A stretch of DNA of 64,000 nucleotides from Polyangiaceae bacterium (GCA_019637295.1 JAHBVX010000011.1:17735-81734); one strand, 5' to 3'; positions 1,498-29,954 are shown, counted from the stretch's first letter. Numbers and translations: made by a program. The notes: generated by a model not told the origin, from the letters alone.

Positions 1498-2472
1498 ATG
1501 GACACGTGGACGTGGGCGAGCGCGCCGGAGCTTCTGCTCCCGCTGATGCGCCTGAAGAGCATCTCCTGGTTCGACTCCCTGCTCGGCTATCCGCCAATCA
1601 AGGCGCTGCTCCCGATCCCGATCCTGCTGGCGCTCGCGCCCGCCGTGTACTGGTTCTTCAAGGACACTTGGCGGGAGCTGGACCGGGAGGCGGCGGCCGC
1701 CCGGGCCGCGCGGGCCGACAGCGGCGAGCTCGATCTTCGGCCGGCGGCCTGCCTGACGATCGTGGCCGTGGTGCTCACTCTGCAGGAGTACTACGGGGGC
1801 CGGCAGTTCTACGACACCACCCTGAGGCCCTGGCTGGTAGAGCTGGATCGCGGGGGCGCGACGTGGCTGAAGCTCGATCGCTACGACGAGCTGTACGGCT
1901 ACAGCTGGTGGGCCTTCTCCCGCGCCCTCGGCTACGTGCTGGTGCCCCTGCCGCTGTGGAAGCTGATGTTTCCGAAGGACAGCCTGCTGGACATGGGCTT
2001 CCGGTTCAAAGGCCTGCTCAGCCACTTGTGGATCTACGGGCTGTGCCTGGCCGTCGTGGTCCCGGCGATGCTGATCGTCGCCTCCCAGCCGGACTTCGGC
2101 GGCTACTACCCGTTCTACAAGAACAGCTCGCGCAGCTGGTTCGATCTCATTTCCTGGGAAGTCGTGTACTTCATTCAGTTTTTGACACTGGAGATGTTCT
2201 TCCGGGGTTGGATGGTCGGCGCCCTGCGCAAGAGCCTCGGCTCGGGAGCCATCTTCGCCATGGCCGTTCCCTACTGCATGATCCACTACGGCAAGCCGTA
2301 CCTCGAGGCTCACGGCGCCATCGTCGCCGGCGTCGTGCTCGGCTCCCTCGCCATGAGGACCCGCAGCATCTACTCCGGCTTCCTGGTCCACATCACAGTC
2401 GCGCTGCTGATGGATCTGCTCGCCCTCTGGAAGCGGGACGCCCTGCCCACGACGTTTTGGGCGGCGAGCTGA
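1498..2472 (+). CDS. CPBP-family (CAAX/Abi-type) intramembrane protease, polytopic membrane protein
   Basis: 324-aa ORF with its ATG 12 nt after the gltX stop. It has several hydrophobic helices. CPBP-like motifs are LEMFFRGW (ExxxR with only one Glu), YCMIHYG (FxxxH-like) and FLVHITVALLMD (third His motif). Confidence 0.7.
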   Translation: MDTWTWASAPELLLPLMRLKSISWFDSLLGYPPIKALLPIPILLALAPAVYWFFKDTWRELDREAAAARAARADSGELDLRPAACLTIVAVVLTLQEYYGGRQFYDTTLRPWLVELDRGGATWLKLDRYDELYGYSWWAFSRALGYVLVPLPLWKLMFPKDSLLDMGFRFKGLLSHLWIYGLCLAVVVPAMLIVASQPDFGGYYPFYKNSSRSWFDLISWEVVYFIQFLTLEMFFRGWMVGALRKSLGSGAIFAMAVPYCMIHYGKPYLEAHGAIVAGVVLGSLAMRTRSIYSGFLVHITVALLMDLLALWKRDALPTTFWAAS

Positions 2473-4538: not shown

Positions 4539-5978
4539 TCACTCCACGACGAACTCGACTCGCCGATTCTTGGACCGCGCCTCGTCGCTCGTGTCCTTCA
4601 CCAGTGGGCGGTCCGGTCCGTAGCCCTCGGCGCTCAGGCGGTTGGGCGCCACGCGGCCACGGTCGATCAAGTACTGACGGACGGCCTGCGCGCGCTGGCG
4701 AGAGAGCCTGCGGTTGACCTCCTTCGGGCCGGTATCGTCCGTGTGGCCTTCGACTCGTACCTTCACGTCCGCGTTGGCCTTGATCATCAGGGCCACCTGG
4801 TCGAGCAGCGAGTGGGACTCTTCCTTGATCTCGGCTTTGCCGTGCTCGAACGTGACCGCGTCCAGGATCTTGAACTGGCCATCTTCGTAGATCACGCGGG
4901 GATCGCCGCTGTCTGGGCAGCCGTCGTGGTCGTCCACGCCGTTGATGGTCTCCTTGGCATCCGGGCACAGATCGTAGCGATCCGGTACCCCGTCCCCGTC
5001 GCTGTCCAGGTCCTCCTCGGGGCAGCCGTCGGTGTCTCGGTCGCCGTCGCGGTCCTCGGGCACATCAGGACACTGGTCTTCGTCGTCGGGAATGCCATCG
5101 TTGTCGCGGTCATGGGCCGTGGGCCTGAAGCGTACGCCCGCGAACACACGGAAGGTGGGGACGCCGTAGCCCGGGATCAAGCCGACACCAGGGCCCGCGG
5201 TGAGCTCCCACTCGGGGGTCGGAGCGTGGCGCAGATAAGCGAAGCCCTCGAGCGGTAGCTCTTCCGCATCGCTCGAACGCAGGCCCACCCCGCCGTTGAG
5301 CTCCAAGCCGATCTCGGTGTTGCCGGTGATCCCCCCGAAGCGATAGCCGACCGCTGCTGCGTACGCCAGCTCGCTCCCGGCCTGGACGTTGCCAAAGTCC
5401 GCGTCTTCTCGGAACAGCACGCCGAGGTTGAAGCCGACGCGGATCCCGTTGATGAAGCGGTGGTCGAGGATGGCCTTGGGCAAGAGCTCGAAGCCGTCTC
5501 CCGTCCCGGAGAAGTCTCCGGTGTGCGTGGGAACGCGCACCTCCGCGGCCAAGGCGAGGCCAACGCTCTCCCGATCGTCGAGTAGTCGCAGCTTGGGTAC
5601 GACCCGCAGCTTGCCCAGTCCGGTGCTCGATGGATCCGCGTCCCCGCTCTGGAGCACGAACGCGGGCAGTCCGACGCCGATCGCCAAGGGACCGGTGAGC
5701 GTCACGGAGCCGAGGACGTCGACGCCCAGGCGACCGCCGACGAAGCTCGCGACGTAGTCGCCCGAACCGTCGACGACGACGAGGGGTCGGTAGGCGTAGT
5801 TGAGGAACAGCCCGAGCTCGAGCGGGTCCTGGCCGGGCCGCACCGCCGAGCCTTCTGCGTTCACGAACCCGTCGTGCGTGACGGCGGGCTGAAAACGTTC
5901 GGCGCTGACTTGCGCCATGGCGGGCGCGGAGAGCCCGAACAGCGATAGGAACAGGAGCGTCGCGTTGATGGGGCGCAT
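4539..5978 (-). CDS. OmpA-family outer-membrane protein with thrombospondin type-3-like Ca-binding repeats (TraB-like architecture)
   Basis: Signal peptide MRPINATLLFLSLFGLSAPAMAQ, followed by a beta-rich N-terminal half. Asp-rich repeats DRDNDGIPDDEDQCPDVPEDRDGDRDTDGCPEEDLDSDGDGVPDRYDLCPD come next. The C-terminal OmpA domain reads VRVEGHTDDTGPKEVNRRLSRQRAQAV...NRRVEFVV. Its start lies 16 nt downstream of the stop of the preceding gene. Confidence 0.88.
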   Translation of the reverse strand: MRPINATLLFLSLFGLSAPAMAQVSAERFQPAVTHDGFVNAEGSAVRPGQDPLELGLFLNYAYRPLVVVDGSGDYVASFVGGRLGVDVLGSVTLTGPLAIGVGLPAFVLQSGDADPSSTGLGKLRVVPKLRLLDDRESVGLALAAEVRVPTHTGDFSGTGDGFELLPKAILDHRFINGIRVGFNLGVLFREDADFGNVQAGSELAYAAAVGYRFGGITGNTEIGLELNGGVGLRSSDAEELPLEGFAYLRHAPTPEWELTAGPGVGLIPGYGVPTFRVFAGVRFRPTAHDRDNDGIPDDEDQCPDVPEDRDGDRDTDGCPEEDLDSDGDGVPDRYDLCPDAKETINGVDDHDGCPDSGDPRVIYEDGQFKILDAVTFEHGKAEIKEESHSLLDQVALMIKANADVKVRVEGHTDDTGPKEVNRRLSRQRAQAVRQYLIDRGRVAPNRLSAEGYGPDRPLVKDTSDEARSKNRRVEFVVE

Positions 5979-7964: not shown

Positions 7965-9014
7965 CTACCTCTTCGCCGGCGTGCGGGAGCGCCTCTTGGC
8001 GTAGCCCGCCAGGGCCTGCTCGAGTTCGTGCTGGACCCGCTCGACGAGCTCCGGCGGCTCGATGACCCGCGCCCGCGCTCCCCACTCGAGCACCCAGCTC
8101 GCGACGGGGTTGAGGTTGCCCACCGTCATCGTCAAGCGCACGCCGCCGCCGGCCACGGACGCCAGCTTCTGGGTCGCGTGCACCTTCCGCATGCGTACGT
8201 ACTCGGCGGCCTGGGCGTCGAAATCCACCACCACCTTGCGCTTCTTCTCGCTCTTCCACACCCCGAGCTCGCCCTGGAAGTACTCGCCCACGTCGAAGCT
8301 GGCGGGGAGCTCGAACCGCTCGGTGACGGAGCACTCGGTGTCGCGCATGCGGTCGAGGACGAACGTGCGGACTTCGCCCCGGGCGACGTGGTGACCGACG
8401 CAATAGATGGCATCCCGATGCAGCACCATCGCGTAGGGATGGAGCGTGATCCGCTCCTCCTGGGCGCGGCTGCTGCTGCGGTACGAGAGGGTGAGCGGGC
8501 GCAGATCGCTCACGGCCTGGAACAGGTCGTCGAGCTCCTCGGTCTTGTCGCCGTAGTTCTTGGGCGCGAAGGGCAGGTACAAGAAGCGGTCCTCGAGCCT
8601 GGCGTCCGCGAGCCCCGCGTTCGGCCCGCGGCCCGGGCGCTGCGCGAACGCGAGCAGCTTCTTGGTGGCCAGGTCGATCTCGTCGAACAGCGCCGAGCCT
8701 CGCATGGGCTCGAACAGCCGCCGAGCGGCGAGGATGGCATAGGCCTGGGTGCGCCTCAGCTCGACCTTGCGCGGGATCTCGCTCGCGCGGATGCGCCAGA
8801 GCAGCGCCCCGCCAGCGCGGGAGGGGGAGCTCTCGAGGTCCAGCTCCCGCTCCACCTCTTTGAGGTAGCGCCGCATCGTCCGGGGGCTGACCGAGATCGC
8901 GTCGGCCAGCTCGTACAGGGACACGCCCCTGGGGTGCTTGGTGAGCAGCTCGCGCAGTCGATCCAGGCGACGATGCTGCGTGAACCGACCTCGGGGCCGC
9001 CCAACCTTGGCCAT
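7965..9014 (-). CDS. WYL-domain transcriptional regulator (HTH + WYL + WCX, YafY/PafBC-like)
   Basis: Only the last 349 codons of the 1487-aa ORF 7965..12428 look real, starting at ATG 9014 (MAKVGRPRG...). HTH: VSLYELADAISVSPRTMRRYLKEVE. WYL core: ITLHPYAMVLHRDAIYCVGHHVARGEVRTFVLDRM. C-terminal WCX-like segment: VASWVLEWGARARVIEPPELVERV. Confidence 0.87.
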   Translation of the reverse strand: MAKVGRPRGRFTQHRRLDRLRELLTKHPRGVSLYELADAISVSPRTMRRYLKEVERELDLESSPSRAGGALLWRIRASEIPRKVELRRTQAYAILAARRLFEPMRGSALFDEIDLATKKLLAFAQRPGRGPNAGLADARLEDRFLYLPFAPKNYGDKTEELDDLFQAVSDLRPLTLSYRSSSRAQEERITLHPYAMVLHRDAIYCVGHHVARGEVRTFVLDRMRDTECSVTERFELPASFDVGEYFQGELGVWKSEKKRKVVVDFDAQAAEYVRMRKVHATQKLASVAGGGVRLTMTVGNLNPVASWVLEWGARARVIEPPELVERVQHELEQALAGYAKRRSRTPAKR

Positions 9015-9209: not shown

Positions 9210-12200
9210 ATGAACGAGAACCCATTCCTTCTCAGCCGGCTCGCAGCGCGTGCGGGCGCCGCAGCGTTGGTTGGTCTTGCCGCTCTTGCGGTAGCGGCGC
9301 GCCCCGCCTTGGCCCAGCCCTACGACTGCAACTCGCCCAACCCCGCGATGTGGCCGCCCCCGGCCAAGCCCTACTTCATGGTCGTGGTGGACACCTCGGG
9401 GAGCATGGCGGCGTGTACCAACCCACAGACGGCCTGGCCCCAGACCTGCGCGGACGTCGGCGGTGGCGTCAACAACTCGTGCGGCTGGCAGCCCTTGCGG
9501 GTGAACGACGCCAAGTGCGCGCTGCGGAACACCCTCTGGGCCTTCGCGGGCGAGGCGAACTTCGGGTTGGCGTCCTTCTCTCGCACCCTCACGGGCTGCC
9601 CCTCCGCGTGCAACTGGGGCCAGGTCTGGAACAGCACCTTCTGGTATCGCTACGCCTACAACGGCTGCGGCTTCGGGGGCACCGCCTGCGGCGGCGCCAA
9701 CATGCTGGTCGGCATGCAGCTGGATGCGACGCCGACGCCGCCCAGCAACGTCCCCTCCATGGTCGAGTACATGGATCACAACTGCGGCGACAACAAGGAG
9801 CTGTTCGCCTACGACGCCACGCCCATCGGCGCGTCGCTGCAGAACGTTCGGACCTATTTCCAGAGCGGGCTCCCCGGCTTCCCGTCGCCCCTCAACGCCC
9901 AAGATCCCGCCTGCCGCTCCCTGAACGTCATCCTGATGACGGACGGCGGCGAGACCTGCAGCGGTGACCCGGTCACCGCGGCTCAGCAGCTCTACACCGG
10001 CTTCACCAAGGACGGGATCTTCAGGCGCATTTACACTCACGTCATCGCCTTCAACGTGGATGCTCCAGCGGATCAAACCCTGCTGAACAACGTGCACAAG
10101 ATGGGCCAGTGCGGGACCACGACCGGGGCCTGCGCGAACGCCGTGAGCGCCATTCAGGCCAGCGACGAGGTGTCTCTGTCGCAGGCCTTCGCCACGATCA
10201 TCTCCGGCGCGGTGAAGCCGGAGACCTGCAACAACGCGGACGACAACTGCAACGGCTGCATCGACGAGGGCTACGCGCGGTACTGCAACGTGAAGCCCGC
10301 AGGGCAGTGCTGTACGTGGGGCAACCCGACGCAGCGCAACACCTGCCTGACGAACTACCAGAACTCGATCACGCCGAGCAACCCGCAGGGGAACGTGGCG
10401 CTCTTGCCGTGCACGACGGTGGCGCAGTCGCAGAACCCGGCGACGTGGCTGTGCTTCAACCCGGGCGAGCTGTGCGACGACGCGGACAACAACTGCAACG
10501 GGCAGACGGACGAGACCTTCAACAAGTGCGGCAACCCGCTGAAGTGCCCCGGTCCGGAGCTGTGCAACGGCGAGGACGACGACTGCGACGGCATCATCGA
10601 CAACGCGGCGGGCAGCGGCGTCCCCTACAGCGCGTGTCCCAACCAGTGCCAGCCGAGCGCGGAGATCTGCGACGGCTGCGACAACAACTGCAACGGGATC
10701 GCGGACGACGGGGTGGCGGACATCCCGTGCGGCTTCTCGCCGCCGGGCAACTGCGCGGGCGTGCGCACGTGCGTGAGCAAGGGGGTGGCGGTGCCGGTGG
10801 GCGGGTGCGTCGGGCCAACCGCGCCGAAGGGCTTCGGAGCGTGCTCGAACACGCCGCAGCCGGAGATCTGCGACGGGCTGGACAACAACTGTAACGGCAC
10901 GGTGGACGAGGGGATCGCGCCTGGGGCGTGCGAGATCCCTGGTCAGCCCGGGCTGAAGTACCAGGAAGACGGCTTCCCGCTGAGCCAGTGCAAGAAGGGG
11001 ATCTTGCCGTGCAACGGGACGTGCAGCGGTTGGACGGGACCGAGCGCGGAGATTTGCGACGGCATCGACAACGACTGCGACGGGATCGTGGACAACAACA
11101 TCCCGGGTCTGGGTCAGGAGTGCGGGCTGGCGACGGGCCAGTGCAGCAAGGGTCAGACGGCGTGCGTGGGCGGAGTGATCGTGTGCCAGGGCGGGACGCA
11201 GCCGCAGCCGGAGATCTGCGACGGCCTGGACAACGACTGCGACGGGACGACGGACAACGCGCCGATGGTGGACCAGCCGAGCAACCCGGGTTGCTGGAGC
11301 CTGCCGGCGACGGGGTGCAGTCCGACCTGCAGCCACCAGAACGTGTCGTGGTGTCCGCCGGCGGGCGGGACGTGCACGGGGACGGGTACGCTGAGCACGC
11401 CGTGCCAGACGGGTACGCTGGTGTGCGACGGAGCAAACCAGTGGAAGTGCCAGGGCGGAGTGGTGCCGACGGCGGAGGTGTGCGACGGGGTGGACAACAA
11501 CTGCAACAGCCAGGTGGACGAGAGCCTGGGCGCGCCGGTGGGCCAGTCCTGCGGGTCGAGCGTTGGGGAGTGCTCTCCGGGCGTGAACGTGTGCGTGAGC
11601 GGAGTGATCCAGTGCCAGGGCGGGCAAGGTCCGACGCCGGAGGTGTGTGACGGACTGGACAACGACTGCGATGGCGACATCGACAACGGCATCCCGCTGG
11701 GTGGGGCGTGCACGCCGGTGTACGACACGAACCTGTACCCCGGGGATCGGACGAAGGGCGTGTGCAAGCCGGGGGTGCTGGCGTGCGACGGGCAGGGCGG
11801 GACGGTGTGCGTTGGCGGCGTGGGCCCGAGCGCGGAGATCTGCGACGGAGTGGACAACGACTGCGACGGCCAGGTGGACGAGCCCGGGCCTGCCCCGGAC
11901 GGGATCAACGGGACGGAGGACCCGCTGCAGCCCGGGGTGAAGATCGGGGACGCTTGCGGGACGAGCGTTGGGGAGTGCAAGCCCGGGCAGTACGCCTGCG
12001 CGGGCGGGAAGTTCGTGTGCCTGGGCGGAGTGGGTCCGAACCCCGAGGTGTGCGACTGCCTGGACAACGACTGCGACGGCCAGGTGGACAACGAGCCGGC
12101 GGCGGGTTCGCTGTGCAGCACGGGCAAGACGTGTGTGGCGGTGGCTGGAGGGAACTGCCAGTGCGCGGAGCCGTGCGCGGGCGGAGAGTTCCCGTGCCCG

Positions 12201-13196
12201 ACGAGCTTCGAGTGCAAGAACGTGACGAAGAGCGGGACGGGTCAGGCCCTCGGTGACTACTGCGTGAACGACGGCTGCGGGGACTGCACGACGAAGACGG
12301 TGAAGGACCAGCAGACGGGGGTGACGCTGTGTGGTCCGGAGGGAACGGCGGGCAGCAAGCCCGAGTGCGTGTGCAAGGCGAACAAGTGCCAGCACCCGTG
12401 CGCGAACATCCAGTGCCCGACGGGTCAAGAGTGCGCGCTGCAGGGGTCGAGCGCTGGGACGTGCCAGCCGACGGGCAACTGCTTCTTCTTCGGCTGCGAC
12501 GCGGGCGAGGTGTGCAACGGCGGGGTGTGCGTGGCCGACCCGTGCACGCCGAACCCGTGCCAGGCGGACGAGGTGTGCAAGCCGAACGCGACCTTCAGCG
12601 AGCCACGCTGCGTGGGGTCGTGCGCGAGCGTGACGTGTCCGACTGGGCAGCAGTGCGTGGAGGGACAGTGCGAGGAGACGGGCTGCGCGCAGGGCTGCGC
12701 GCCGGGCGAGGTGTGCCAGCCCACGGGTGATGGCGGCTACGCTTGCGGCCCGAACCAGTGCGCGACGGACGCGGGTCAGCCGTGCAGCAACGGCGCGTGG
12801 TGCAACCCGGCGACGGGCGCGTGCGGCAACGAGCCCTGCGAGGGTGTGGTTTGCCCGGTCGCGCAGCTGTGCGCCGAGGGTCAGTGCATCTGGGCGCCCG
12901 AGGGCGGCGCGGGCACCGGCGGCAGCGGCACCGGCGGCAGCGGCACCGGCGGCAGCGGCACCGGCGGCGCCGGACCGGACGCGGGCCTGGGCGGCGGAAG
13001 TGGCGGAAACATCAGCGTTCCGACCACCGACCCCGAGCGCGGGGTCTGGGGCCTGGCCACCGGCGGCGGCGGCTGCGCCTGCCGCGCGGCCGGGACCGAC
13101 CGGCGCACGCCGCTCGGCGCGGCCTTGGCATTCGGCGCTCTGGCGGTCGCTCTTGGCTTCCGCCGGCGACGCCGAGGTGCTCTTCTAGGAGGCTGA
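9210..13196 (+). CDS. giant secreted surface protein, paralog A: VWA/MIDAS-like head, 11 CDGxDNDCDGxxDE metal-binding-type repeats, Cys-rich EGF-like stalk, (GTGGS)n linker, MYXO-CTERM
   Basis: 1328 aa with signal peptide ...LAALAVAARPALAQ. The head carries PYFMVVVDTSGSM (a DxSGS MIDAS motif) and NVILMTDGGETCSGD. The repeats include EICDGIDNDCDGIVDN and EVCDGLDNDCDGDIDNG. The C-terminus is GGGGCACRAAG...ALAVALGFRRRRRG. Confidence 0.9.
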   Translation: MNENPFLLSRLAARAGAAALVGLAALAVAARPALAQPYDCNSPNPAMWPPPAKPYFMVVVDTSGSMAACTNPQTAWPQTCADVGGGVNNSCGWQPLRVNDAKCALRNTLWAFAGEANFGLASFSRTLTGCPSACNWGQVWNSTFWYRYAYNGCGFGGTACGGANMLVGMQLDATPTPPSNVPSMVEYMDHNCGDNKELFAYDATPIGASLQNVRTYFQSGLPGFPSPLNAQDPACRSLNVILMTDGGETCSGDPVTAAQQLYTGFTKDGIFRRIYTHVIAFNVDAPADQTLLNNVHKMGQCGTTTGACANAVSAIQASDEVSLSQAFATIISGAVKPETCNNADDNCNGCIDEGYARYCNVKPAGQCCTWGNPTQRNTCLTNYQNSITPSNPQGNVALLPCTTVAQSQNPATWLCFNPGELCDDADNNCNGQTDETFNKCGNPLKCPGPELCNGEDDDCDGIIDNAAGSGVPYSACPNQCQPSAEICDGCDNNCNGIADDGVADIPCGFSPPGNCAGVRTCVSKGVAVPVGGCVGPTAPKGFGACSNTPQPEICDGLDNNCNGTVDEGIAPGACEIPGQPGLKYQEDGFPLSQCKKGILPCNGTCSGWTGPSAEICDGIDNDCDGIVDNNIPGLGQECGLATGQCSKGQTACVGGVIVCQGGTQPQPEICDGLDNDCDGTTDNAPMVDQPSNPGCWSLPATGCSPTCSHQNVSWCPPAGGTCTGTGTLSTPCQTGTLVCDGANQWKCQGGVVPTAEVCDGVDNNCNSQVDESLGAPVGQSCGSSVGECSPGVNVCVSGVIQCQGGQGPTPEVCDGLDNDCDGDIDNGIPLGGACTPVYDTNLYPGDRTKGVCKPGVLACDGQGGTVCVGGVGPSAEICDGVDNDCDGQVDEPGPAPDGINGTEDPLQPGVKIGDACGTSVGECKPGQYACAGGKFVCLGGVGPNPEVCDCLDNDCDGQVDNEPAAGSLCSTGKTCVAVAGGNCQCAEPCAGGEFPCPTSFECKNVTKSGTGQALGDYCVNDGCGDCTTKTVKDQQTGVTLCGPEGTAGSKPECVCKANKCQHPCANIQCPTGQECALQGSSAGTCQPTGNCFFFGCDAGEVCNGGVCVADPCTPNPCQADEVCKPNATFSEPRCVGSCASVTCPTGQQCVEGQCEETGCAQGCAPGEVCQPTGDGGYACGPNQCATDAGQPCSNGAWCNPATGACGNEPCEGVVCPVAQLCAEGQCIWAPEGGAGTGGSGTGGSGTGGSGTGGAGPDAGLGGGSGGNISVPTTDPERGVWGLATGGGGCACRAAGTDRRTPLGAALAFGALAVALGFRRRRRGALLGG
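10207..13177 (+). repeat. direct repeat copy 1 (about 2.97 kb, near-identical to 14367..17337)
   Basis: Line-by-line comparison at a constant 4160-nt offset. I saw substitutions only at 10226, 10268, 10271, 10314, 10466, 10637, 10640, 10644, 10646 and 13160. Alternate-frame ORFs in the track are identical between copies (for example 11153..12217 versus 15313..16377). Confidence 0.95.
12912..12968 (+). repeat. in-frame 15-nt tandem repeat ggcaccggcggcagc (about 3.8 units) encoding a (GTGGS)n linker
   Basis: Read directly: ggcaccggcggcagc x3, then ggcaccggcggcgcc. It translates to GTGGSGTGGSGTGGSGTGGA. Confidence 0.9.
13062..13196 (+). other. MYXO-CTERM-type sorting tag (tag 2 of 5)
   Basis: GGGGCACRAAGTDRRTPLGAALAFGALAVALGFRRRRRGALLGG-stop. 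Confidence 0.8.
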
Positions 13197-13216
13197 GGCT
13201 CTTTCTCGAACGGGAC

Positions 13217-16200
13217 ATGATGCAGAAGCACACAGTGCGAGCGACCAGTCGGCGCAGGCTCGGGTTCTGGGCGGCAGCAGCGGCCAGCGGGGTGGCAGCC
13301 TTGGCCCTGTGCAGCCCACGATCGGCCGCAGCGCAACCCTACGACTGCAACTCGCCCAACCCTGCGATGTGGCCGCCGCCGGCGAAGCCCTACTTCATGC
13401 TCCTGGTCGACACGTCGGGCAGCATGGTGGGGTGCACCAACCCCTCCACCTCGAACTACCAGTTTCCGAACTCGTGTCCCAGCACCGCGCCGCAGAACTC
13501 CTGCGGCATGGAGCCTACCCGCATCAACGACGCCAAGTGTGCGCTCCGGCAGACCGTGCAGGCGTTCGCCGGCGAGGTGAACTTCGGCCTGGCGACCTTC
13601 CCGGTCAACCTCGCGGGCTGCGGGAACGGAGCGTGCGTGGACACCTGCACGGCGGCCAGTGGCTCGTGCACGCTCTCCGGCGGCGTGGGTACCTCCGGCG
13701 AGTACCACGCCGGCAACGGCTGCTCGGTCACCGGCTACACGAACACGAGCGATGGCGCGAGCTGCGGCAACTTCCCGAGCTGCGGTCCCGCCGGTCCCGC
13801 CGCCCCCAACTTGGCCAAGGGCACCTGGCGCAACGGCGGCAAGATCGTGGTCGACATGCTGCGCGACACCACCCCCCCCGGAGCCAGCAACGTGGCCACC
13901 CTGCTCGAGTGGTTCGACGGCAACTGCAACAACAGCCGAGAGCTGTTCGCGATCGGGGGCACGCCCATCGGCGGGTCCCTGCGCACCATTCACCAGTACT
14001 TCCTCGCCGGTTGGAACTCCGGCTGGCACACGACGAACTACTGCGCCAGCGGGCTGTCCTACACGAGCCCCACCCCCATGGACCCCGCGGACCCGCAGTG
14101 CCGCAACTTGAACGTCATCCTGGTGACGGACGGCGACCCGAGCTGCGGAGACACCGTGGCCTCGTCCGTCAGCGCGGCGCAGGCGCTCTTCCAGCAGGGA
14201 GTCACCTTTGGGGGCAAGAACTTCCCCGTGCGGACCCACGTCATCAACTTCGCTGGTGGCGTCCAGTCCACCACGGACCAGATCGCGGCGGCGGGCGGCA
14301 CGGTGGCGTCACTCTCGGCCAACAACGAGGTCACCCTCGCGCAGGCGCTCTCGACGATCATCGCGAGCGCGGTGAAGCCGGAGACGTGCAACAACGCGGA
14401 CGACAACTGCAACGGCTGCATCGACGAAGGTTACGCGCGGTACTGCAACGTGAAGCCCGCAGGGCAGTGCTGTGCGTGGGGCAACCCGACGCAGCGCAAC
14501 ACCTGCCTGACGAACTACCAGAACTCGATCACGCCGAGCAACCCGCAGGGGAACGTGGCGCTCTTGCCGTGCACGACGGTGGCGCAGTCGCAGAACCCGG
14601 CGACGTGGCTGTGCTTCAACCCGGGGGAGCTGTGCGACGACGCGGACAACAACTGCAACGGGCAGACGGACGAGACCTTCAACAAGTGCGGCAACCCGCT
14701 GAAGTGCCCCGGTCCGGAGCTGTGCAACGGCGAGGACGACGACTGCGACGGCATCATCGACAACGCGGCGGGCAGCGGCGTCCCCTACAGCGCGTGCCCA
14801 AACAATTGCCAGCCGAGCGCGGAGATCTGCGACGGCTGCGACAACAACTGCAACGGGATCGCGGACGACGGGGTGGCGGACATCCCGTGCGGCTTCTCGC
14901 CGCCGGGCAACTGCGCGGGCGTGCGCACGTGCGTGAGCAAGGGGGTGGCGGTGCCGGTGGGCGGGTGCGTCGGGCCAACCGCGCCGAAGGGCTTCGGAGC
15001 GTGCTCGAACACGCCGCAGCCGGAGATCTGCGACGGGCTGGACAACAACTGTAACGGCACGGTGGACGAGGGGATCGCGCCTGGGGCGTGCGAGATCCCT
15101 GGTCAGCCCGGGCTGAAGTACCAGGAAGACGGCTTCCCGCTGAGCCAGTGCAAGAAGGGGATCTTGCCGTGCAACGGGACGTGCAGCGGTTGGACGGGAC
15201 CGAGCGCGGAGATTTGCGACGGCATCGACAACGACTGCGACGGGATCGTGGACAACAACATCCCGGGTCTGGGTCAGGAGTGCGGGCTGGCGACGGGCCA
15301 GTGCAGCAAGGGTCAGACGGCGTGCGTGGGCGGAGTGATCGTGTGCCAGGGCGGGACGCAGCCGCAGCCGGAGATCTGCGACGGCCTGGACAACGACTGC
15401 GACGGGACGACGGACAACGCGCCGATGGTGGACCAGCCGAGCAACCCGGGTTGCTGGAGCCTGCCGGCGACGGGGTGCAGTCCGACCTGCAGCCACCAGA
15501 ACGTGTCGTGGTGTCCGCCGGCGGGCGGGACGTGCACGGGGACGGGTACGCTGAGCACGCCGTGCCAGACGGGTACGCTGGTGTGCGACGGAGCAAACCA
15601 GTGGAAGTGCCAGGGCGGAGTGGTGCCGACGGCGGAGGTGTGCGACGGGGTGGACAACAACTGCAACAGCCAGGTGGACGAGAGCCTGGGCGCGCCGGTG
15701 GGCCAGTCCTGCGGGTCGAGCGTTGGGGAGTGCTCTCCGGGCGTGAACGTGTGCGTGAGCGGAGTGATCCAGTGCCAGGGCGGGCAAGGTCCGACGCCGG
15801 AGGTGTGTGACGGACTGGACAACGACTGCGATGGCGACATCGACAACGGCATCCCGCTGGGTGGGGCGTGCACGCCGGTGTACGACACGAACCTGTACCC
15901 CGGGGATCGGACGAAGGGCGTGTGCAAGCCGGGGGTGCTGGCGTGCGACGGGCAGGGCGGGACGGTGTGCGTTGGCGGCGTGGGCCCGAGCGCGGAGATC
16001 TGCGACGGAGTGGACAACGACTGCGACGGCCAGGTGGACGAGCCCGGGCCTGCCCCGGACGGGATCAACGGGACGGAGGACCCGCTGCAGCCCGGGGTGA
16101 AGATCGGGGACGCTTGCGGGACGAGCGTTGGGGAGTGCAAGCCCGGGCAGTACGCCTGCGCGGGCGGGAAGTTCGTGTGCCTGGGCGGAGTGGGTCCGAA

Positions 16201-17389
16201 CCCCGAGGTGTGCGACTGCCTGGACAACGACTGCGACGGCCAGGTGGACAACGAGCCGGCGGCGGGTTCGCTGTGCAGCACGGGCAAGACGTGTGTGGCG
16301 GTGGCTGGAGGGAACTGCCAGTGCGCGGAGCCGTGCGCGGGCGGAGAGTTCCCGTGCCCGACGAGCTTCGAGTGCAAGAACGTGACGAAGAGCGGGACGG
16401 GTCAGGCCCTCGGTGACTACTGCGTGAACGACGGCTGCGGGGACTGCACGACGAAGACGGTGAAGGACCAGCAGACGGGGGTGACGCTGTGTGGTCCGGA
16501 GGGAACGGCGGGCAGCAAGCCCGAGTGCGTGTGCAAGGCGAACAAGTGCCAGCACCCGTGCGCGAACATCCAGTGCCCGACGGGTCAAGAGTGCGCGCTG
16601 CAGGGGTCGAGCGCTGGGACGTGCCAGCCGACGGGCAACTGCTTCTTCTTCGGCTGCGACGCGGGCGAGGTGTGCAACGGCGGGGTGTGCGTGGCCGACC
16701 CGTGCACGCCGAACCCGTGCCAGGCGGACGAGGTGTGCAAGCCGAACGCGACCTTCAGCGAGCCACGCTGCGTGGGGTCGTGCGCGAGCGTGACGTGTCC
16801 GACTGGGCAGCAGTGCGTGGAGGGACAGTGCGAGGAGACGGGCTGCGCGCAGGGCTGCGCGCCGGGCGAGGTGTGCCAGCCCACGGGTGATGGCGGCTAC
16901 GCTTGCGGCCCGAACCAGTGCGCGACGGACGCGGGTCAGCCGTGCAGCAACGGCGCGTGGTGCAACCCGGCGACGGGCGCGTGCGGCAACGAGCCCTGCG
17001 AGGGTGTGGTTTGCCCGGTCGCGCAGCTGTGCGCCGAGGGTCAGTGCATCTGGGCGCCCGAGGGCGGCGCGGGCACCGGCGGCAGCGGCACCGGCGGCAG
17101 CGGCACCGGCGGCAGCGGCACCGGCGGCGCCGGACCGGACGCGGGCCTGGGCGGCGGAAGTGGCGGAAACATCAGCGTTCCGACCACCGACCCCGAGCGC
17201 GGGGTCTGGGGCCTGGCCACCGGCGGCGGCGGCTGCGCCTGCCGCGCGGCCGGGACCGACCGGCGCACGCCGCTCGGCGCGGCCTTGGCATTCGGCGCTC
17301 TGGCGGTCGCTCTTGGCTTGCGCCGGCGACGCCGAGGCCCCTCGAGAGACGAAACGGTCGACGGCATGACTGAAGGAGACGCGCGATGA
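13217..17389 (+). CDS. giant secreted surface protein, paralog B: divergent VWA/MIDAS-like head, with stalk and MYXO-CTERM almost identical to paralog A
   Basis: In-frame ATG at 13217 (MMQKHTVRATSRRRLGFWAAAAASGVAALALC...AAAQ) within ORF 12743..17389, giving 1390 aa. The head has PYFMLLVDTSGSM and NVILVTDGDPSCGD. From AVKPETCNNADDNCNG onward it matches paralog A. The C-terminus is GGGGCACRAAG...ALGLRRRRRG plus a 16-aa tail. Confidence 0.9.
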   Translation: MMQKHTVRATSRRRLGFWAAAAASGVAALALCSPRSAAAQPYDCNSPNPAMWPPPAKPYFMLLVDTSGSMVGCTNPSTSNYQFPNSCPSTAPQNSCGMEPTRINDAKCALRQTVQAFAGEVNFGLATFPVNLAGCGNGACVDTCTAASGSCTLSGGVGTSGEYHAGNGCSVTGYTNTSDGASCGNFPSCGPAGPAAPNLAKGTWRNGGKIVVDMLRDTTPPGASNVATLLEWFDGNCNNSRELFAIGGTPIGGSLRTIHQYFLAGWNSGWHTTNYCASGLSYTSPTPMDPADPQCRNLNVILVTDGDPSCGDTVASSVSAAQALFQQGVTFGGKNFPVRTHVINFAGGVQSTTDQIAAAGGTVASLSANNEVTLAQALSTIIASAVKPETCNNADDNCNGCIDEGYARYCNVKPAGQCCAWGNPTQRNTCLTNYQNSITPSNPQGNVALLPCTTVAQSQNPATWLCFNPGELCDDADNNCNGQTDETFNKCGNPLKCPGPELCNGEDDDCDGIIDNAAGSGVPYSACPNNCQPSAEICDGCDNNCNGIADDGVADIPCGFSPPGNCAGVRTCVSKGVAVPVGGCVGPTAPKGFGACSNTPQPEICDGLDNNCNGTVDEGIAPGACEIPGQPGLKYQEDGFPLSQCKKGILPCNGTCSGWTGPSAEICDGIDNDCDGIVDNNIPGLGQECGLATGQCSKGQTACVGGVIVCQGGTQPQPEICDGLDNDCDGTTDNAPMVDQPSNPGCWSLPATGCSPTCSHQNVSWCPPAGGTCTGTGTLSTPCQTGTLVCDGANQWKCQGGVVPTAEVCDGVDNNCNSQVDESLGAPVGQSCGSSVGECSPGVNVCVSGVIQCQGGQGPTPEVCDGLDNDCDGDIDNGIPLGGACTPVYDTNLYPGDRTKGVCKPGVLACDGQGGTVCVGGVGPSAEICDGVDNDCDGQVDEPGPAPDGINGTEDPLQPGVKIGDACGTSVGECKPGQYACAGGKFVCLGGVGPNPEVCDCLDNDCDGQVDNEPAAGSLCSTGKTCVAVAGGNCQCAEPCAGGEFPCPTSFECKNVTKSGTGQALGDYCVNDGCGDCTTKTVKDQQTGVTLCGPEGTAGSKPECVCKANKCQHPCANIQCPTGQECALQGSSAGTCQPTGNCFFFGCDAGEVCNGGVCVADPCTPNPCQADEVCKPNATFSEPRCVGSCASVTCPTGQQCVEGQCEETGCAQGCAPGEVCQPTGDGGYACGPNQCATDAGQPCSNGAWCNPATGACGNEPCEGVVCPVAQLCAEGQCIWAPEGGAGTGGSGTGGSGTGGSGTGGAGPDAGLGGGSGGNISVPTTDPERGVWGLATGGGGCACRAAGTDRRTPLGAALAFGALAVALGLRRRRRGPSRDETVDGMTEGDAR
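14367..17337 (+). repeat. direct repeat copy 2 (about 2.97 kb, near-identical to 10207..13177)
   Basis: Same comparison as copy 1. Identity begins at gcgcggtgaagccggagac and ends after gccgagg (17337). Confidence 0.95.
17072..17128 (+). repeat. same 15-nt tandem repeat in paralog B
   Basis: Identical sequence at a +4160 nt offset. Confidence 0.9.
17222..17389 (+). other. MYXO-CTERM-type sorting tag (tag 3 of 5) with an extra acidic tail
   Basis: GGGGCACRAAGTDRRTPLGAALAFGALAVALGLRRRRRGPSRDETVDGMTEGDAR-stop. Confidence 0.75.
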
Positions 17390-20300
17390 AGTGGCTAACA
17401 GCAGCCCTGGTCTCGAGTACGGTGCTCGCGTTGGCGGTAGCGCCGGCCTGCACGACCTCGAGCTTCTGCTTCGAGGATTGTGACGGTGACGGCGGCAAGG
17501 GGACCGGCGGCACAGGCGACGGAGGTCTGTGGGACGGCCAGGTCATCGACGGCGCGTCAGGCGACACGGGCGTCATCGGCATCGACACCGGCACGGGCGA
17601 CGCGTGCGTCGCGACGAACAACGGCGTCGAGATTTGTGATGGTATCGACAACGACTGCAACGGAGTCATCGACGACGGGTTCGACTTCACCAAGACCCAG
17701 AGCTGCGGCACCTGCGACAACAACTGCGCCCTGGGCGCGAGCGCCCCGGTGAACGTCGTGAACCCGAGCTGCGACCCACCGTCGACCACGGACGGCACCG
17801 TCGCGGGCACCTGCAAGTGGGAGAAGTGTGCCCAGGATTTCTACGATATCGACAAAGGCAAGCCGGGAGAGATCCTGGGCTGCGAGTATCAGTGCCCCTG
17901 GAACCCGGACGGTACGGTCACCGTGGACACCGGCGGGTCGGAGGGCTGCGGACGGGACGACGACTGCGACGGCTTGATCGACGAGGACCTGAACACCTGC
18001 GACGACATCGACAACTGCGGCAAGTGCGGCAAGCCCTGCGTCATCCCCAACGGGACGGCCAAGTGCACGACGACCGCGCAGCAGGGGCAGCAGTGTACCG
18101 AGGCCAACACCAAGTGCGAGATCGCGTCGTGTGACGCGGGCTACCACGACGCCGACAAGGCGGCGGGCAACGGCTGCGAGTACCAGTGCACACCCACCGG
18201 TCCCGAGATCTGCGACGGCATCGACAACGACTGCGACGGTAAGATCGACAACACCGACGACAGCCTCGAGGTCGACGACCCCAACGTCGGCCAGACCTGC
18301 CAGGGTGGGGTCAACGGCATCTGCGCCGACCCGGCCAACGCCGGCGTCAAGAAGTGCATCGGGGGCCAGATCAGCTGCTGCGACGTGGGCTCGAACAACG
18401 TCAGCTCCACCAACCCCAACCTGCCGGTCACCGGCCTCCGCAACGGCGTGTGTAGCGCTCCGACTGGCCCCAAGGTCATCAAGCCCGGGGACGTGCAGGA
18501 GACCTGCAACAACAAGGACGACGACTGCGACGGGGTCGTGGACGACTCACCCATCGACCAGGGCGGAACTTGTGGCAGCACCGTCGGCAGCTGCCAGGCC
18601 GGTACCCAGCAGTGTCAGAGTGGCGCGCTGGTGTGCGTGGGCAACACCGTTCCCGCTGCCGAAATCTGCAACGGCCAGGACAACAACTGCGACGGCGTGA
18701 TCGACGGCATCATGGTGACCCCGGTGGTCGCGTGCACCCAGGACGCGCAGTGTTCGGGCAGCGCCAGGTGCATGATCCGCTCGGGTCCCACGGACCGCGT
18801 GTGTGCGCTGCGGCCCACGGACGTGGGCACCACCTGCGACACCTTCCCACCGCCGCCCGCGGGTTACACCTCGCCCTGCCAGGCGGGCACGCTGGCCTGC
18901 GTGGGTGGCGTGAAGGTGTGTCAGGGCTCGATCAAGCCGAACGCCGTCTCCGACACCTGCGGCCAGGACACCAACTGCAACGGCGTGTACGAGGGACCGA
19001 CGCCGCAGCAGATGCAGACGGACGTCAAGAACTGCGGGAGTTGCGGCAACGACTGCGGCCAGATCTCGCCCGGCGGCCACGGCGTGTGGGCGTGTCAGGC
19101 CGGCCAGTGCGTGCGCACCGGCTGCGAGGCGAACTACATCAACTGCGACGGCAACAACAACGACTGCGAGCGCTTCTGCACCTTCGTGTCGGCGAACGAG
19201 CAGTGCAACGGCATCGACGACAACTGCAACTGCCAGGTGGACGAGAACATCACCGCCGTGCCCAGCCCGGTGTCCGTCTGCGGCGTCGCGGCGGCCGCGA
19301 ATGATCCTGGGTGCCTGCCCCGCCACCCCACGACCAACCCCACGGGTGTACAGGTCAGCTGCAACAACGGCGGTTGGCAGTGCTCGTTCACCAGCGGGTA
19401 CTGCTCGGGCAGTCCGCCGGACTGCTCCACCACCGTGGACACCTGCGACAACAAGGACAACAACTGCAACGGCGCCACGGACGAGAGCTTCAAGCCTCCG
19501 ATCTTGAATCAAGGTTACGTGGGCCAACAGTGCGCGAGCGACGACGGCCTCCCCGCGCCCGGCCACGGTCAGTGCCGGACTCAGGGACAGTTCGTGTGCA
19601 CGAGCGCTACCACGACCGGGTGCAACGCTACGAAGAACAACGCCGCCGCGGGCACGGAGCTGTGCGACGGAGTGGACAACGACTGCGACGGCCTAGTGGA
19701 CGAGCCCTTCACCAACAAGGGCACCAACACCACGCACTTCGTGCGGCCCGCGGTGACTCAGCTCGCGACCAACCTGTGGATGACGCAGTACGAGGTCAGC
19801 CGCCCGGGGGCCACCAACGTCAATCCGGGTAACGGCAACGGCTACCAGACCGCGGCACCGACGGGCGTCACGCTGGACCGGGTGCAGGGCTGCTCGGTCG
19901 CGGGTGTCATCCCCTGGTTCAACGTCACGCCGGTCGAGGCTCAACAGGTCTGCGCGGCGCGCGGAGGCCGGTTGTGCTCCACCGGGGAGTGGCAGACCGC
20001 GTGCCGGACGCCCAGCAACGCCTGCACCTGGGGCTACAACCCGCGCACGGGCTCTCCGGCTCCATGTACGCTGGCTGGGACGTATACAGCGGGCACGGGC
20101 CGAGTGTGCAACATCGGGCCCTTCGACTTCGACGGCAACCCGGTCAACGGAGTCACCAACGGCCTGTTGCCGACGGCGTCGGCGTCGCTGCAAAACTGCT
20201 GGGCGGACTGGGCCGGCAGCACCGGCAACACGGCGGCGTTCAACAACATCCGCGACATCACCGGCAACCTCGGCGAGATCGTCCAACACTCGGGCACGAA

Positions 20301-20469
20301 CTGCGGCGCCGTGAACAACACCTGCGTCTACAAGGTGATGGGTGGTGGGTTCAACACGGCGGCGGAGAGCGGCGCGACCTGCAACTTCACGTTCTACAGC
20401 GTCGACAAGGACTTCAAGCTCTACGACGCCGGCTTCCGCTGCTGCTTCACCAGCAACCCGACCCTCTGA
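17386..20469 (+). CDS. Cys-rich probable lipoprotein with about 10 CDGxDNDCDG-type repeats and a C-terminal FGE/SUMF1-like (C-type-lectin fold) domain
   Basis: 1027 aa. ATG 17386 overlaps the paralog B stop as ATGA. N-terminus MKWLTAALVSSTVLALAVAPAC. Repeats include EICDGIDNDCNGVIDDG, EICDGIDNDCDGKIDN and ELCDGVDNDCDGLVDEP. The last roughly 250 aa are FGE-sulfatase-like (LWMTQYEVSRPGA, VPWFNVTPVEAQQVCAARGGRLCSTGEWQTAC, ITGNLGEIV, GGGFN, DAGFRCCF). Confidence 0.85.
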   Translation: MKWLTAALVSSTVLALAVAPACTTSSFCFEDCDGDGGKGTGGTGDGGLWDGQVIDGASGDTGVIGIDTGTGDACVATNNGVEICDGIDNDCNGVIDDGFDFTKTQSCGTCDNNCALGASAPVNVVNPSCDPPSTTDGTVAGTCKWEKCAQDFYDIDKGKPGEILGCEYQCPWNPDGTVTVDTGGSEGCGRDDDCDGLIDEDLNTCDDIDNCGKCGKPCVIPNGTAKCTTTAQQGQQCTEANTKCEIASCDAGYHDADKAAGNGCEYQCTPTGPEICDGIDNDCDGKIDNTDDSLEVDDPNVGQTCQGGVNGICADPANAGVKKCIGGQISCCDVGSNNVSSTNPNLPVTGLRNGVCSAPTGPKVIKPGDVQETCNNKDDDCDGVVDDSPIDQGGTCGSTVGSCQAGTQQCQSGALVCVGNTVPAAEICNGQDNNCDGVIDGIMVTPVVACTQDAQCSGSARCMIRSGPTDRVCALRPTDVGTTCDTFPPPPAGYTSPCQAGTLACVGGVKVCQGSIKPNAVSDTCGQDTNCNGVYEGPTPQQMQTDVKNCGSCGNDCGQISPGGHGVWACQAGQCVRTGCEANYINCDGNNNDCERFCTFVSANEQCNGIDDNCNCQVDENITAVPSPVSVCGVAAAANDPGCLPRHPTTNPTGVQVSCNNGGWQCSFTSGYCSGSPPDCSTTVDTCDNKDNNCNGATDESFKPPILNQGYVGQQCASDDGLPAPGHGQCRTQGQFVCTSATTTGCNATKNNAAAGTELCDGVDNDCDGLVDEPFTNKGTNTTHFVRPAVTQLATNLWMTQYEVSRPGATNVNPGNGNGYQTAAPTGVTLDRVQGCSVAGVIPWFNVTPVEAQQVCAARGGRLCSTGEWQTACRTPSNACTWGYNPRTGSPAPCTLAGTYTAGTGRVCNIGPFDFDGNPVNGVTNGLLPTASASLQNCWADWAGSTGNTAAFNNIRDITGNLGEIVQHSGTNCGAVNNTCVYKVMGGGFNTAAESGATCNFTFYSVDKDFKLYDAGFRCCFTSNPTL

Positions 20470-20533
20470 CCCGATCGGGTCGAGCCTGCGGCACGAGTCC
20501 GGGGGGTTTCGCTCCCCGGCTCGCTCGGGCACC

Positions 20534-21568
20534 ATGGCGAGGATGTCGAAGCCGCGGAGGTCCGGATACCGGGTGCTGGCCCCAAAGGAGGTCCGCTCGG
20601 ACGACCGCGAGCTCGCGTACGAGGTGTTGGTGGGGCTGTCCGAGCACCCCAAGCGCTTACCGTCGCGGCTCTTCTATGACGACGAGGGTAGCCGACTGTT
20701 TCAGCGCATCATGGCGCTCGGCGAGTACTACCTGACGGACTGCGAGCGCGAGATCCTGGAAGCACACAAGGGAGACCTGGCGGACGTGGTCGCGGCCGAG
20801 CCCGTCAACGTGGTCGATCTCGGCGCCGGCGACGGAGAGAAGACCTTCATCCTGCTCGACCACCTGGGCAAGCGCAGCATCGAGCATCGCTACGTACCCA
20901 TCGACATCTCCGAGGGAGCGATGAGTGCGCTGGTGGAGCGCGTGACGGCGCGGCTGCCGCACCTGGACGTCGAGGGCATCATCGCGGAGTACTCGGATGG
21001 CCTCGAGGCGCTGGCCCAGGCCGAGTCCAGCCGTCGCAACTTGGTGCTGTTCTTGGGGTCCAACATCGGCAACTTCGATCGTGCCCGATCGCGCGCGTTC
21101 TTGCGCCGGCTGTGGAACGCGCTGAACCCCGGCGACTTGCTGCTGATCGGCTTCGATCTGAAGAAGGACATCGACCTGTTGCTCCGCGCGTACAACGACC
21201 GCGAGGGCGTGACCGCCGCGTTCAATCTGAACCTGCTCACGCGCCTGAACCGAACTCTGGGAGCGCAGTTCGACATCGACAAGTTTCGACACTTCGGCAC
21301 CTACGACGTGTTCAGCGGTGCCATGCAGAGCTATCTGGTGAGCCTCGAGCGCCAGTTGATCGAGATCAGCCAGCTGTCGCTGGCGTTCCAGTTCGAGCCT
21401 TGGGAGCCCATTCACACCGAGTACTCGTACAAGTACCTGCGCTCGGACGTGACCACCCTGGCCAAGGACACGGGTTTCTCGATCCAGGCGGAGTTCTTGG
21501 ATGACAAGCGCTGGTTTCTCGACTCGCTCTGGCGGGTGGAGAAGGCGCCCACGGCGATGCCGAGCTAG
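20534..21568 (+). CDS. EgtD-family SAM-dependent (histidine N-alpha-type) methyltransferase
   Basis: In-frame ATG at 20534 within ORF 20342..21568, giving 344 aa. Family motifs seen: LPSRLFYDDEGSRLFQRIMALGEYYLTDCEREIL, VDLGAGDGEKT, YVPIDISEGAM, FLGSNIGNF and IHTEYSYKY. Confidence 0.82.
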   Translation: MARMSKPRRSGYRVLAPKEVRSDDRELAYEVLVGLSEHPKRLPSRLFYDDEGSRLFQRIMALGEYYLTDCEREILEAHKGDLADVVAAEPVNVVDLGAGDGEKTFILLDHLGKRSIEHRYVPIDISEGAMSALVERVTARLPHLDVEGIIAEYSDGLEALAQAESSRRNLVLFLGSNIGNFDRARSRAFLRRLWNALNPGDLLLIGFDLKKDIDLLLRAYNDREGVTAAFNLNLLTRLNRTLGAQFDIDKFRHFGTYDVFSGAMQSYLVSLERQLIEISQLSLAFQFEPWEPIHTEYSYKYLRSDVTTLAKDTGFSIQAEFLDDKRWFLDSLWRVEKAPTAMPS

Positions 21569-29723: not shown

Positions 29724-29954
29724 CTCCTTACCTCTCACTTTCTCACCGCTGTTTCGAAGCGCGCGCCCCCGCTGCGCGCGCTCCTCGACAAAAGTCTGAA
29801 CCGACGCCACTCAAGCAAGAGCCGAGCCAGGGAGTTGCGAGCGCTAAACCTGCAACAAATGGCGTGGGCCGTGCCGGGTGGGAAGGCGGCGCGGACGGTA
29901 ACCGTTAGAAGGCTAACTCGCAACGACAATGTAGCCGCGCGATGACGCGACGCG

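Follow-up and report, generated by a model that had tools for sequence, protein, structure and literature searches.

How can two adjacent genes carry some 3 kb of almost identical DNA when the parts that precede it are strongly diverged? This question is raised by a stretch of 64,000 nucleotides (nt) from a Polyangiaceae bacterium (GCA_019637295.1, JAHBVX010000011.1:17735-81734; the whole stretch is hereafter called the window), in which two giant genes, A and B, lie in tandem on the same strand. A sequence-only reading of the window had noticed the repeat and ascribed it to recent or ongoing gene conversion, or to a very recent partial duplication, rather than to an old whole-gene duplication. 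Here, we compared the two copies exactly and analyzed the corresponding loci of related myxobacteria. Our results make it highly probable that A and B are ancient tandem paralogues whose 3' parts (tails) evolve in concert by recurrent gene conversion, while their 5' parts (heads) stay distinct.

Two giant genes and their common tail

Gene models were open reading frames (ORFs) selected by the G+C content at third codon positions (GC3). Gene A (9210-13196, plus strand) encodes 1328 amino acids (aa) and is identical to MBX3130588.1 (KF718_27970; P0012), and gene B (13217-17389, plus strand) encodes 1390 aa and is identical to MBX3130589.1 (KF718_27975; P0013). Both products are annotated as 'hypothetical protein' on a 241 kb contig of a Polyangiaceae metagenome-assembled genome (MAG), which represents a soil or wastewater myxobacterium with a genomic G+C content of about 69%. 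The ATG of B lies 20 nt past the stop codon of A, and the stop codon of B overlaps the start of a third gene, C; thus, A, B and C probably form one operon. The order of parts is the same in both proteins: signal peptide, von Willebrand A (vWA) head (about 300-350 aa, of a different type in B), Cys-rich stalk of MopE repeats (about 990 aa with 112 cysteines), GGSGT linker and MYXO-CTERM-like anchor. Judged by these parts, A and B would be Sec-exported proteins displayed at the cell surface.

The repeat comprises the stalk and anchor of gene A, with 11 MopE-like units and 112 cysteines (copy 1, 10207-13177, plus strand), and the stalk and anchor of gene B (copy 2, 14367-17337, plus strand). A comparison at the fixed offset of 4160 nt revealed exactly ten mismatches, located in the A copy at 10226, 10268, 10271, 10314, 10466, 10637, 10640, 10644, 10646 and 13160, which leaves a mismatch-free core of 2513 nt (10647-13159). 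The sequence-only reading had described a repeat of about 3 kb with ten differences, nine of them within 10226-10646 and one at 13160, and none across 10647-13159, and all of this was reproduced position by position. BLASTN of the two genes, which that reading had proposed as a check, gave 99.66% identity over 2971 nt; with the ragged 5' edge, the value was 99.2% over 3021 nt. Beyond the repeat ends, identity at the same offset fell to about 25-50%, and self-comparison revealed no second long repeat within the window. An even spread of the differences would have counted against the earlier reading; what the exact alignment shows is strong clustering, since the probability that at least nine of the ten differences fall within the first 440 nt of the repeat is 3e-7, and a gap of at least 2513 nt between differences arose in 0 of 200,000 simulated runs. 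The clustering is not due to chance. Six of the differences are synonymous, and the remainder account for T369A, Q479N (2 nt) and F1317L. The repeat begins 8 nt upstream of a conserved KPETCNN junction motif and ends inside an Arg cluster, 19 nt short of the gene A stop codon. Its offset shifts the frame by 2, which equals the frame difference between genes A and B, so that both copies are read in one register.

Upstream of the repeat the two genes go different ways. Head A (9315-10206, plus strand), which is unique to gene A, is a predicted vWA domain that carries a MIDAS (metal-ion-dependent adhesion site; D61-x-S63-x-S65, T204 and D245) and Cys-rich insertions, whereas head B (13331-14366, plus strand) appears to be a vWA domain of another, anciently diverged type with longer Cys-rich insertions, as indicated by head alignment, tree and identity matrix. 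The heads share only about 52% aa identity over aligned columns and differ by large insertions and deletions, in agreement with the strong divergence noticed before. An AlphaFold2 model of head A (predicted local distance difference test score 73.8; predicted template modelling (TM) score 0.77) returned 111 PDB matches at E <= 0.001 in Foldseek. The top matches were vWA domains, including PitA (E 7.5e-8) and the integrin alpha2 I-domain (TM 0.74, normalised to the target), and among the matches listed nearly all were vWA chains (PitA, SpaC, integrin I-domains, complement factor B and TRAP). The MIDAS columns D61, S63, S65, T204 and D245 are conserved in the head alignments, and DTSGSM occurs in both heads. 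On the basis of this model, the vWA head with its MIDAS metal site is likely the ligand-binding part, and, by analogy, A and B could be two surface adhesins or receptors that have different ligand specificities on one type of stalk.

The stalk was recognized by MopE-type repeats of the form C-D-G-x-D-N-D-C-D-G scoring above the Pfam gathering score: PF11617 matched seven stretches with 145 bits in A and 133 bits in B (cut-off 27). At the DNA level, each tail contains 11 MopE-like units that are only 60-84% alike. Homogenisation among internal stalk units was thus ruled out, and any exchange must have occurred in register between the genes and not among units. Between stalk and anchor, Tandem Repeats Finder detected 4.4 copies of a 15-nt tandem repeat, GGCGGCAGCGGCACC, which encodes the GGSGT linker (12903-12968, plus strand); gene B has the same repeat with an equal copy number (17063-17128), and this linker could be a slippage-prone length variable. 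The anchor is a MYXO-CTERM-like signal with a GGGGCAC motif, a hydrophobic helix and RRRRR, at 13065-13175 in A (plus strand; TIGR03901 at aa 1286-1322) and at 17225-17335 in B (plus strand; aa 1337-1373), and both proteins have ...GGGGCACRAAG...PLGAALAFGALAVALGF-RRRRR at the extreme C-terminus. All three features of the tripartite MYXO-CTERM definition (PMC11980579 and a bioRxiv preprint) are present in A and B, namely a signature motif in which one Cys is invariant, a transmembrane helix and an Arg cluster; the definition also requires a Myxococcota genome, and the relatives are Polyangiaceae. In Myxococcus, MYXO-CTERM is lipidated and cleaved by a CPBP myxosortase and anchors proteins on the cell surface (PMC11980579).

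Different histories of heads and tails

A scan of GTDB species representatives with a four-sequence head alignment (a nine-sequence one was too diverse) identified 44 loci, nearly all labelled Polyangiaceae or other Myxococcota; loci are given below by our own numbers, such as L003, where they have to be told apart. In a tail-based protein search, proteins with the full-length architecture (about 1300-1400 aa) proved to be common among Polyangiaceae; they were found in the cultured Chondromyces crocatus, in Polyangium species and in one Minicystis MAG, under database names such as 'MopE-related protein' or 'VWFA domain-containing protein'. In most loci the gene order is conserved: CPBP protease, speA, SLT, WYL regulator (minus strand), giant gene(s) and gene C. 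Two or three giant genes in tandem were observed in nine genomes. Within-genome tail identity was 99.7% in the window and, by self-BLASTN, 99.0% over 3022 nt in L003, 98.6% in L006, 97.6% in L005 and 95.6% in L019; it was 91.1% over 5.5 kb (tail plus C-like gene) in L065, the finished genome of C. crocatus, 90-92% among the three genes of L066, 75-81% in L002 and 74% in L040.

Comparison with these relatives, a further check proposed by the sequence-only reading, separated the histories of the two parts. First, in one alignment of eleven tails, nucleotide identity was 95.4-99.4% within five genomes versus 61-84% between genomes; stalk tails are therefore more alike within than between genomes and must have been homogenised separately and recently in each lineage. 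Second, the heads show the opposite pattern. Head A of the window shares 84-86% aa identity with the heads in first position in L003 and L004 and 67% with L001, and the value for head B against the second-position heads of L003 and L005 is 66-68%, whereas heads within one genome are only 44-53% identical. As heads cluster by type across genomes in both the head tree and the identity matrix, the duplication predates the species split. Third, synonymous divergence (dS, Nei-Gojobori) between paralogous tails was 0.009 in the window and 0.013, 0.073 and 0.047 in other pairs, against 1.23 between the orthologous tails of the window and L003, and nonsynonymous divergence (dN) of heads was 0.47-0.55 between paralogues versus 0.10-0.27 between orthologues. 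The dS contrast supports the part of the earlier reading that invoked ongoing gene conversion, and a very recent partial duplication is disfavoured. The earlier rejection of an old whole-gene duplication held in one respect only: the two genes have not simply diverged, but the duplication itself is old, as shown by the orthology of heads across species.

The same values bear on the idea that purifying selection alone, with no recombination, keeps the stalks identical. The stalk is indeed structurally constrained, as no species lacks any of the 112 cysteines, 111 Cys columns are invariant and the length is conserved. However, synonymous sites are identical too (paralogous versus orthologous dS above), and stalk proteins are only 57-88% identical between species. 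This explanation is effectively refuted and can be regarded as practically impossible.

The extent of homogenisation is also shared among species. In each of the five genomes with strong homogenisation, the head/stalk junction forms the start of the tract, whose end is about 2.9 kb further on, just past the membrane helix, and differences mostly lie at one or both tract edges around difference-free cores; L019 is an exception, with patchy differences throughout. The suggestion that the 5' cluster of the window marks a conversion-tract boundary fits this common junction start. Within the window itself, that cluster is the sole mosaic evidence, but mosaic patterns are clearer elsewhere. In L066 the closest pair of tails switches along their length, from copies 2/3 at about 200-500 to 1/3 at about 1400-1500 and 2000-2600 and 1/2 at about 1500-1600, and in C. 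crocatus up to 356 nt are identical in a row, compared with about 67 nt expected by permutation. Pair switching in L066, the long identical run in C. crocatus and the patchiness of L019 thus point to several partial conversion events.

These observations also allow us to judge a simpler history, in which one recent event in this lineage, either a partial duplication or a single long conversion, produced the repeat and nothing is ongoing. Taken alone, the window could be explained in this way, since one event and a few later mutations could yield ten differences. Yet the same tract, with the same boundaries, is nearly identical within at least four other species whose tails differ by 16-39% from one species to another, within-genome identity is graded from 99.7% through 91% to 74%, and the mosaic patterns imply many partial events. 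Even in the window, nine differences in 440 nt beside 2.5 kb without any need at least two events of different extent. A single event is therefore very unlikely.

Arrays of giant genes vary among relatives in both size and composition. L066 (GCA_016706225.1, 6174-18142) is a three-gene tandem array (1276, 1317 and 1385 aa) with the same synteny, and arrays in other relatives contain two or three giant genes, or giant genes alternating with C-like genes. Head types also change by position: L003 has types A and B and L005 types C and B, with tails 82% identical, while L007 has B' and C, L019 has B' and D, and L006 has the reversed order C and B'. Such variation would fit unequal crossing-over and differential loss through homogenised tails. 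The earlier proposal that the repeat is a substrate for deletion or expansion is plausible in this light, in that array composition and head types do vary among relatives, although crossing-over itself is deduced from this variation.

The changing head types at a given position between close relatives (L003/L005, L007/L019 and the reversed L006) would also be expected if each lineage had undergone a recent duplication of the whole gene, followed by exchange of one head for a foreign cassette by recombination through a conserved N-terminal block and the stalk junction. Such a block (C-x-SP-x-P-x-x-WP...PYFM..DTSGSM) does border the head on its 5' side. On the other hand, each lineage would need its own source of heads, and no such reservoir turned up within 10 kb; moreover, neither the mosaic tails among the three copies of L066 nor the orthology of the A and B heads, in the same order in the window and L003, would be explained. 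Head replacement after recent duplication is thus unlikely as the origin of the pattern, and such rearrangement more likely acts besides conversion, with unequal crossing-over in larger arrays and differential loss from them as one possible route.

With recurrent gene conversion as the preferred explanation, the following course of events may be proposed. The two heads have remained different since before the split of these Polyangiaceae species, while the DNA of stalk and anchor would be overwritten between copies by non-reciprocal homologous recombination between the direct repeats, presumably by RecA-type machinery, so that the two tails would evolve as one sequence. On the 5' side, the tract may be limited by head divergence (about 45% nucleotide mismatch), which ends usable homology, by selection that keeps the heads distinct, or by both; selection against head homogenisation probably operates. 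On the 3' side, position-specific ends explain the limit: A continues to the region where B begins, and the end of B overlaps gene C; the gene in position 2 has a conserved 3' extension (...EGD(A/R)(R/S)-stop) that overlaps the gene C start. Differences would persist mainly at tract edges because fewer conversion events include them.

Some additional signs of conversion were sought. GC3 of tails versus heads showed no consistent direction across four genomes, and GC-biased conversion was rejected on this ground. Recombinant haplotypes or further strains were sought in Joint Genome Institute (JGI) metagenomes by two scans for tail patterns in which the variable sites were masked; both scans gave 0 matches. 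In the N-terminal block (QPYDCNSPNPAMWPPPAKPYFM..DTSGSM), 84 of 93 nt are common to A (9315-9407) and B (13334-13426), as compared with 77-78 of 93 nt between A or B and its own orthologue in L003, and every genome shows strong conservation of this block. We considered a second small conversion patch here, but the evidence is weak and the similarity could just reflect strong conservation, so we make no such claim.

How perfect is the repeat?

Several observations weigh against our interpretation or narrow it. Homogenisation is not universal, since tails in L040 and L002 are only 74-81% identical. Two domain assignments fall short of standard profiles: Pfam VWA models had no match to A or B at E <= 0.01, and TIGR03901 scores of 19.6 (A) and 19.1 (B) bits are slightly under the curated cut-off of 20. 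NCBIfam likewise returned no VWA match for the heads, and a profile search with the head against PDB sequences also gave no match; the predicted vWA domain of the head is recognisable by fold and motif only. Most importantly, repeat collapse in assembly could have exaggerated the identity of the 2.5 kb core, which looks perfect. The earlier caution about assembly error thus stands, and the perfect core is perhaps partly an artefact of this kind.

That two copies exist is a separate matter. Four Logan short-read contigs (from SRR25057012, SRR29773752, SRR29773753 and SRR29149424) are 99.99-100% identical to the window, and all four end at 10256, the end of the last 31-mer with the A-specific base 10226. 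If 31-base words are assumed for the Logan assembly graph, the graph must branch at 10256, because the next distinguishing base is 10268 and the intervening 31-mers are common to both copies. Given these breaks, the in-frame connection of both heads with the tail, and the syntenic arrangement in relatives including a finished genome, the two-copy structure is real. Searches by exact protein sequence with A, B, C, P0012 and a 32-aa 3' fragment of B retrieved no contig.

What may be questioned is therefore the degree of identity. If both genes are real but their tails differ by about 1-3% throughout, the core might have been collapsed and traversed twice, or homogenised by polishing, and the surviving differences would be only those that reads could link to unique flanks. 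In line with this, the differences in the window are no further than 440 nt from the 5' flank or 17 nt from the 3' flank, those in L003 (a CONCOCT bin from one Sequence Read Archive run, likely of short reads) lie within about 110 nt of the flanks, several long-contig loci and the finished genome show differences inside the tail, and the Logan short-read contigs cannot cross the repeat. However, phasing should be as easy in the 3' 440 nt as in the 5' 440 nt, but the former contain one difference compared with nine in the latter (Poisson P = 0.0012), which indicates that divergence is truly uneven. In addition, difference-free cores of 1.2-1.8 kb were also observed in L005 and L006, which lie on contigs of 3.48 Mb and 0.9 Mb, respectively. 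Hidden divergence of the core is thus a minor but appreciable possibility; as collapse itself needs very high similarity, near-identity and concerted evolution would survive it.

Giant-gene homologues are broken in several public MAGs, as in L001 (10037-15083), L002 (3000-16900) and L019 (about 14300-18330), where they appear as two to five gene calls or are interrupted by frameshifts and in-frame stops. Such breaks may reflect errors of sequencing or assembly in a Cys-rich, GC-rich repeat, or the genes may be real pseudogenes. Because homologues are split or frameshifted, the full-length family is under-represented in protein databases. The repeat is a hazard for MAG assembly, polishing and gene calling, as well as a likely site of deletion or expansion.

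Neighbouring genes and comparison with known systems

Gene C (17386-20469, plus strand; 1027 aa) carries MopE repeats (PF11617, 50.6 bits), and its start overlaps the stop codon of B (ATGA), which makes translational coupling of the two genes probable. In most related loci, gene C is found behind the giant gene(s), and in C. crocatus and L040 it alternates with them. Its C-terminal domain, which ends in ...CCFTSNPTL, has a weak FGE-sulfatase match (16-19 bits, under the cut-off). Directly after gene C lies an EgtD-like histidine-specific methyltransferase gene (20342-21568, plus strand; PF10017, 335 bits), and in view of the weak resemblance of the gene C domain to the FGE/EgtB fold, a link to ergothioneine-type chemistry is possible.

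On the other side, an HTH_11-WYL-WCX transcription regulator (7965-9014, minus strand; Pfam WYL 63, WCX 62 and HTH_11 30 bits; Logan gene calls agree) is divergent from gene A. Most related loci have it directly upstream of the giant genes, and synteny was observed for L003, L005, L006, L019, L066, L065 and L040. WYL regulators are usually discussed alongside defence or DNA-damage systems; here the gene adjoins surface-protein genes instead. A defence system was considered and rejected, as PADLOC matched the WYL protein only and not A, B or C.

A CPBP/Rce1-like intramembrane protease (1498-2472, plus strand; PF02517) is encoded some 7 kb upstream of A and B, with gltX and speA on either side. 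In NCBIfam it matched the archaeomyxosortase MrtA best (84 bits versus a cut-off of 200), and it is syntenic in L003, L005, L006 and L019, with a cut Rce1-like gene at the same site in L066. It is a candidate myxosortase of the MrtC/MrtX type. Other features of the window include a further MYXO-CTERM protein (21674-23473, plus strand; 599 aa) with a TIGR03901 score of 20.9 bits, above the cut-off, in which no Pfam domain was found; a Myxo_Cys_RPT protein with the TraA-type Cys-rich repeat TIGR04201 (5995-7194, minus strand; 399 aa) and an adjoining OmpA-family gene (4539-5978, minus strand); and a large ORF (24993-29810, minus strand; 1605 aa, GC3 0.93) without Pfam or NCBIfam match.

Taken together, these data define an unstudied and widespread Polyangiaceae family of predicted integrin-like surface proteins with a vWA head, a stalk of 112 cysteines and a MYXO-CTERM-like anchor. 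The WYL regulator and gene C form its conserved neighbourhood, and C. crocatus Cm c5 (CP012159.1, about 5.197-5.221 Mb) is a representative that can be cultured. It is tempting to speculate that stalk identity is itself selected and not a neutral by-product, as part of a modular surface-recognition system of one stalk and interchangeable heads, although we consider this rather unlikely. If it were true, the 3 kb tails would serve as a recombination platform by which at least four vWA head types are gained, lost, reordered and exchanged between positions or strains, and both proteins would need the same stalk for equal reach, co-assembly or a shared partner such as gene C. With all of this under the conserved WYL regulator, the system would be a vWA-based counterpart of polymorphic TraA recognition.

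Among known myxobacterial proteins, CglB and CglD of Myxococcus xanthus are, by description, likewise Cys-rich surface proteins with vWA and MIDAS, and CglD has a stalk with EGF-like repeats (10.1101/2023.10.19.562135; PMC9946355). However, the Cgl proteins are N-terminally lipidated outer-membrane lipoproteins of the gliding machinery with another domain order, and no glt genes were noted in the window annotations. TraA of M. xanthus, whose stalk has been proposed to present the head on the cell surface (PMC3325183; PMC11980579), resembles A and B in its signal peptide, N-terminal recognition domain, long Cys-rich repeat stalk and MYXO-CTERM anchor. This likeness is in architecture only. The TraA head is PA14-like and its repeats belong to TIGR04201, in contrast with the vWA head and PF11617 repeats found here, and its partner is TraB (OmpA-like) and not a second copy of itself. 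Since neither PA14 nor TIGR04201 was reported for A or B in Pfam and NCBIfam scans, homology to TraA is not supported.

With regard to the recombination pattern, we found no relevant literature on concerted evolution in myxobacteria or on this vWA-MopE family, and the closest parallels are adhesin genes of other bacteria. In Helicobacter pylori, intragenomic gene conversion among babA, babB and babC makes chimeras (PMC4552749). These are also adhesin paralogues, located in the outer membrane, that are partly homologous and partly divergent, with homologous 5' and 3' regions around a divergent ligand-binding middle. Unlike A and B, however, the bab loci are dispersed and not tandem, and their conversion alters expression and phase variation, whereas no CT-repeat switch or chimeric head was seen in A or B. 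In Leptospira, ligA and ligB share a nearly identical segment of about 2.1 kb, for which gene conversion has been proposed and a tandem arrangement is thought to help (PMC7821625). Like A and B, they are paralogous surface-adhesin genes, in tandem on some Leptospira chromosomes, with a long identical segment and a gene-specific remainder. The layout is reversed, as the identical part of the lig genes is the 5' end with the promoter and the unique parts are C-terminal, whereas here a unique N-terminal head precedes a common stalk and anchor; the folds also differ (Big_2 in lig, vWA and MopE repeats here), and the present pattern is documented across several species. Gene conversion between paralogous adhesin genes is thus already known, and what is new is an uncharacterised Polyangiaceae family that shows it. 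Documentation in multiple species and a sharp boundary at the level of domains are unusual in this context. The family offers a clean multi-species bacterial case of concerted evolution resolved at the level of protein domains, in which the difference between the heads is older than the separation of the species, whereas 3 kb of stalk DNA is nearly identical within each genome.

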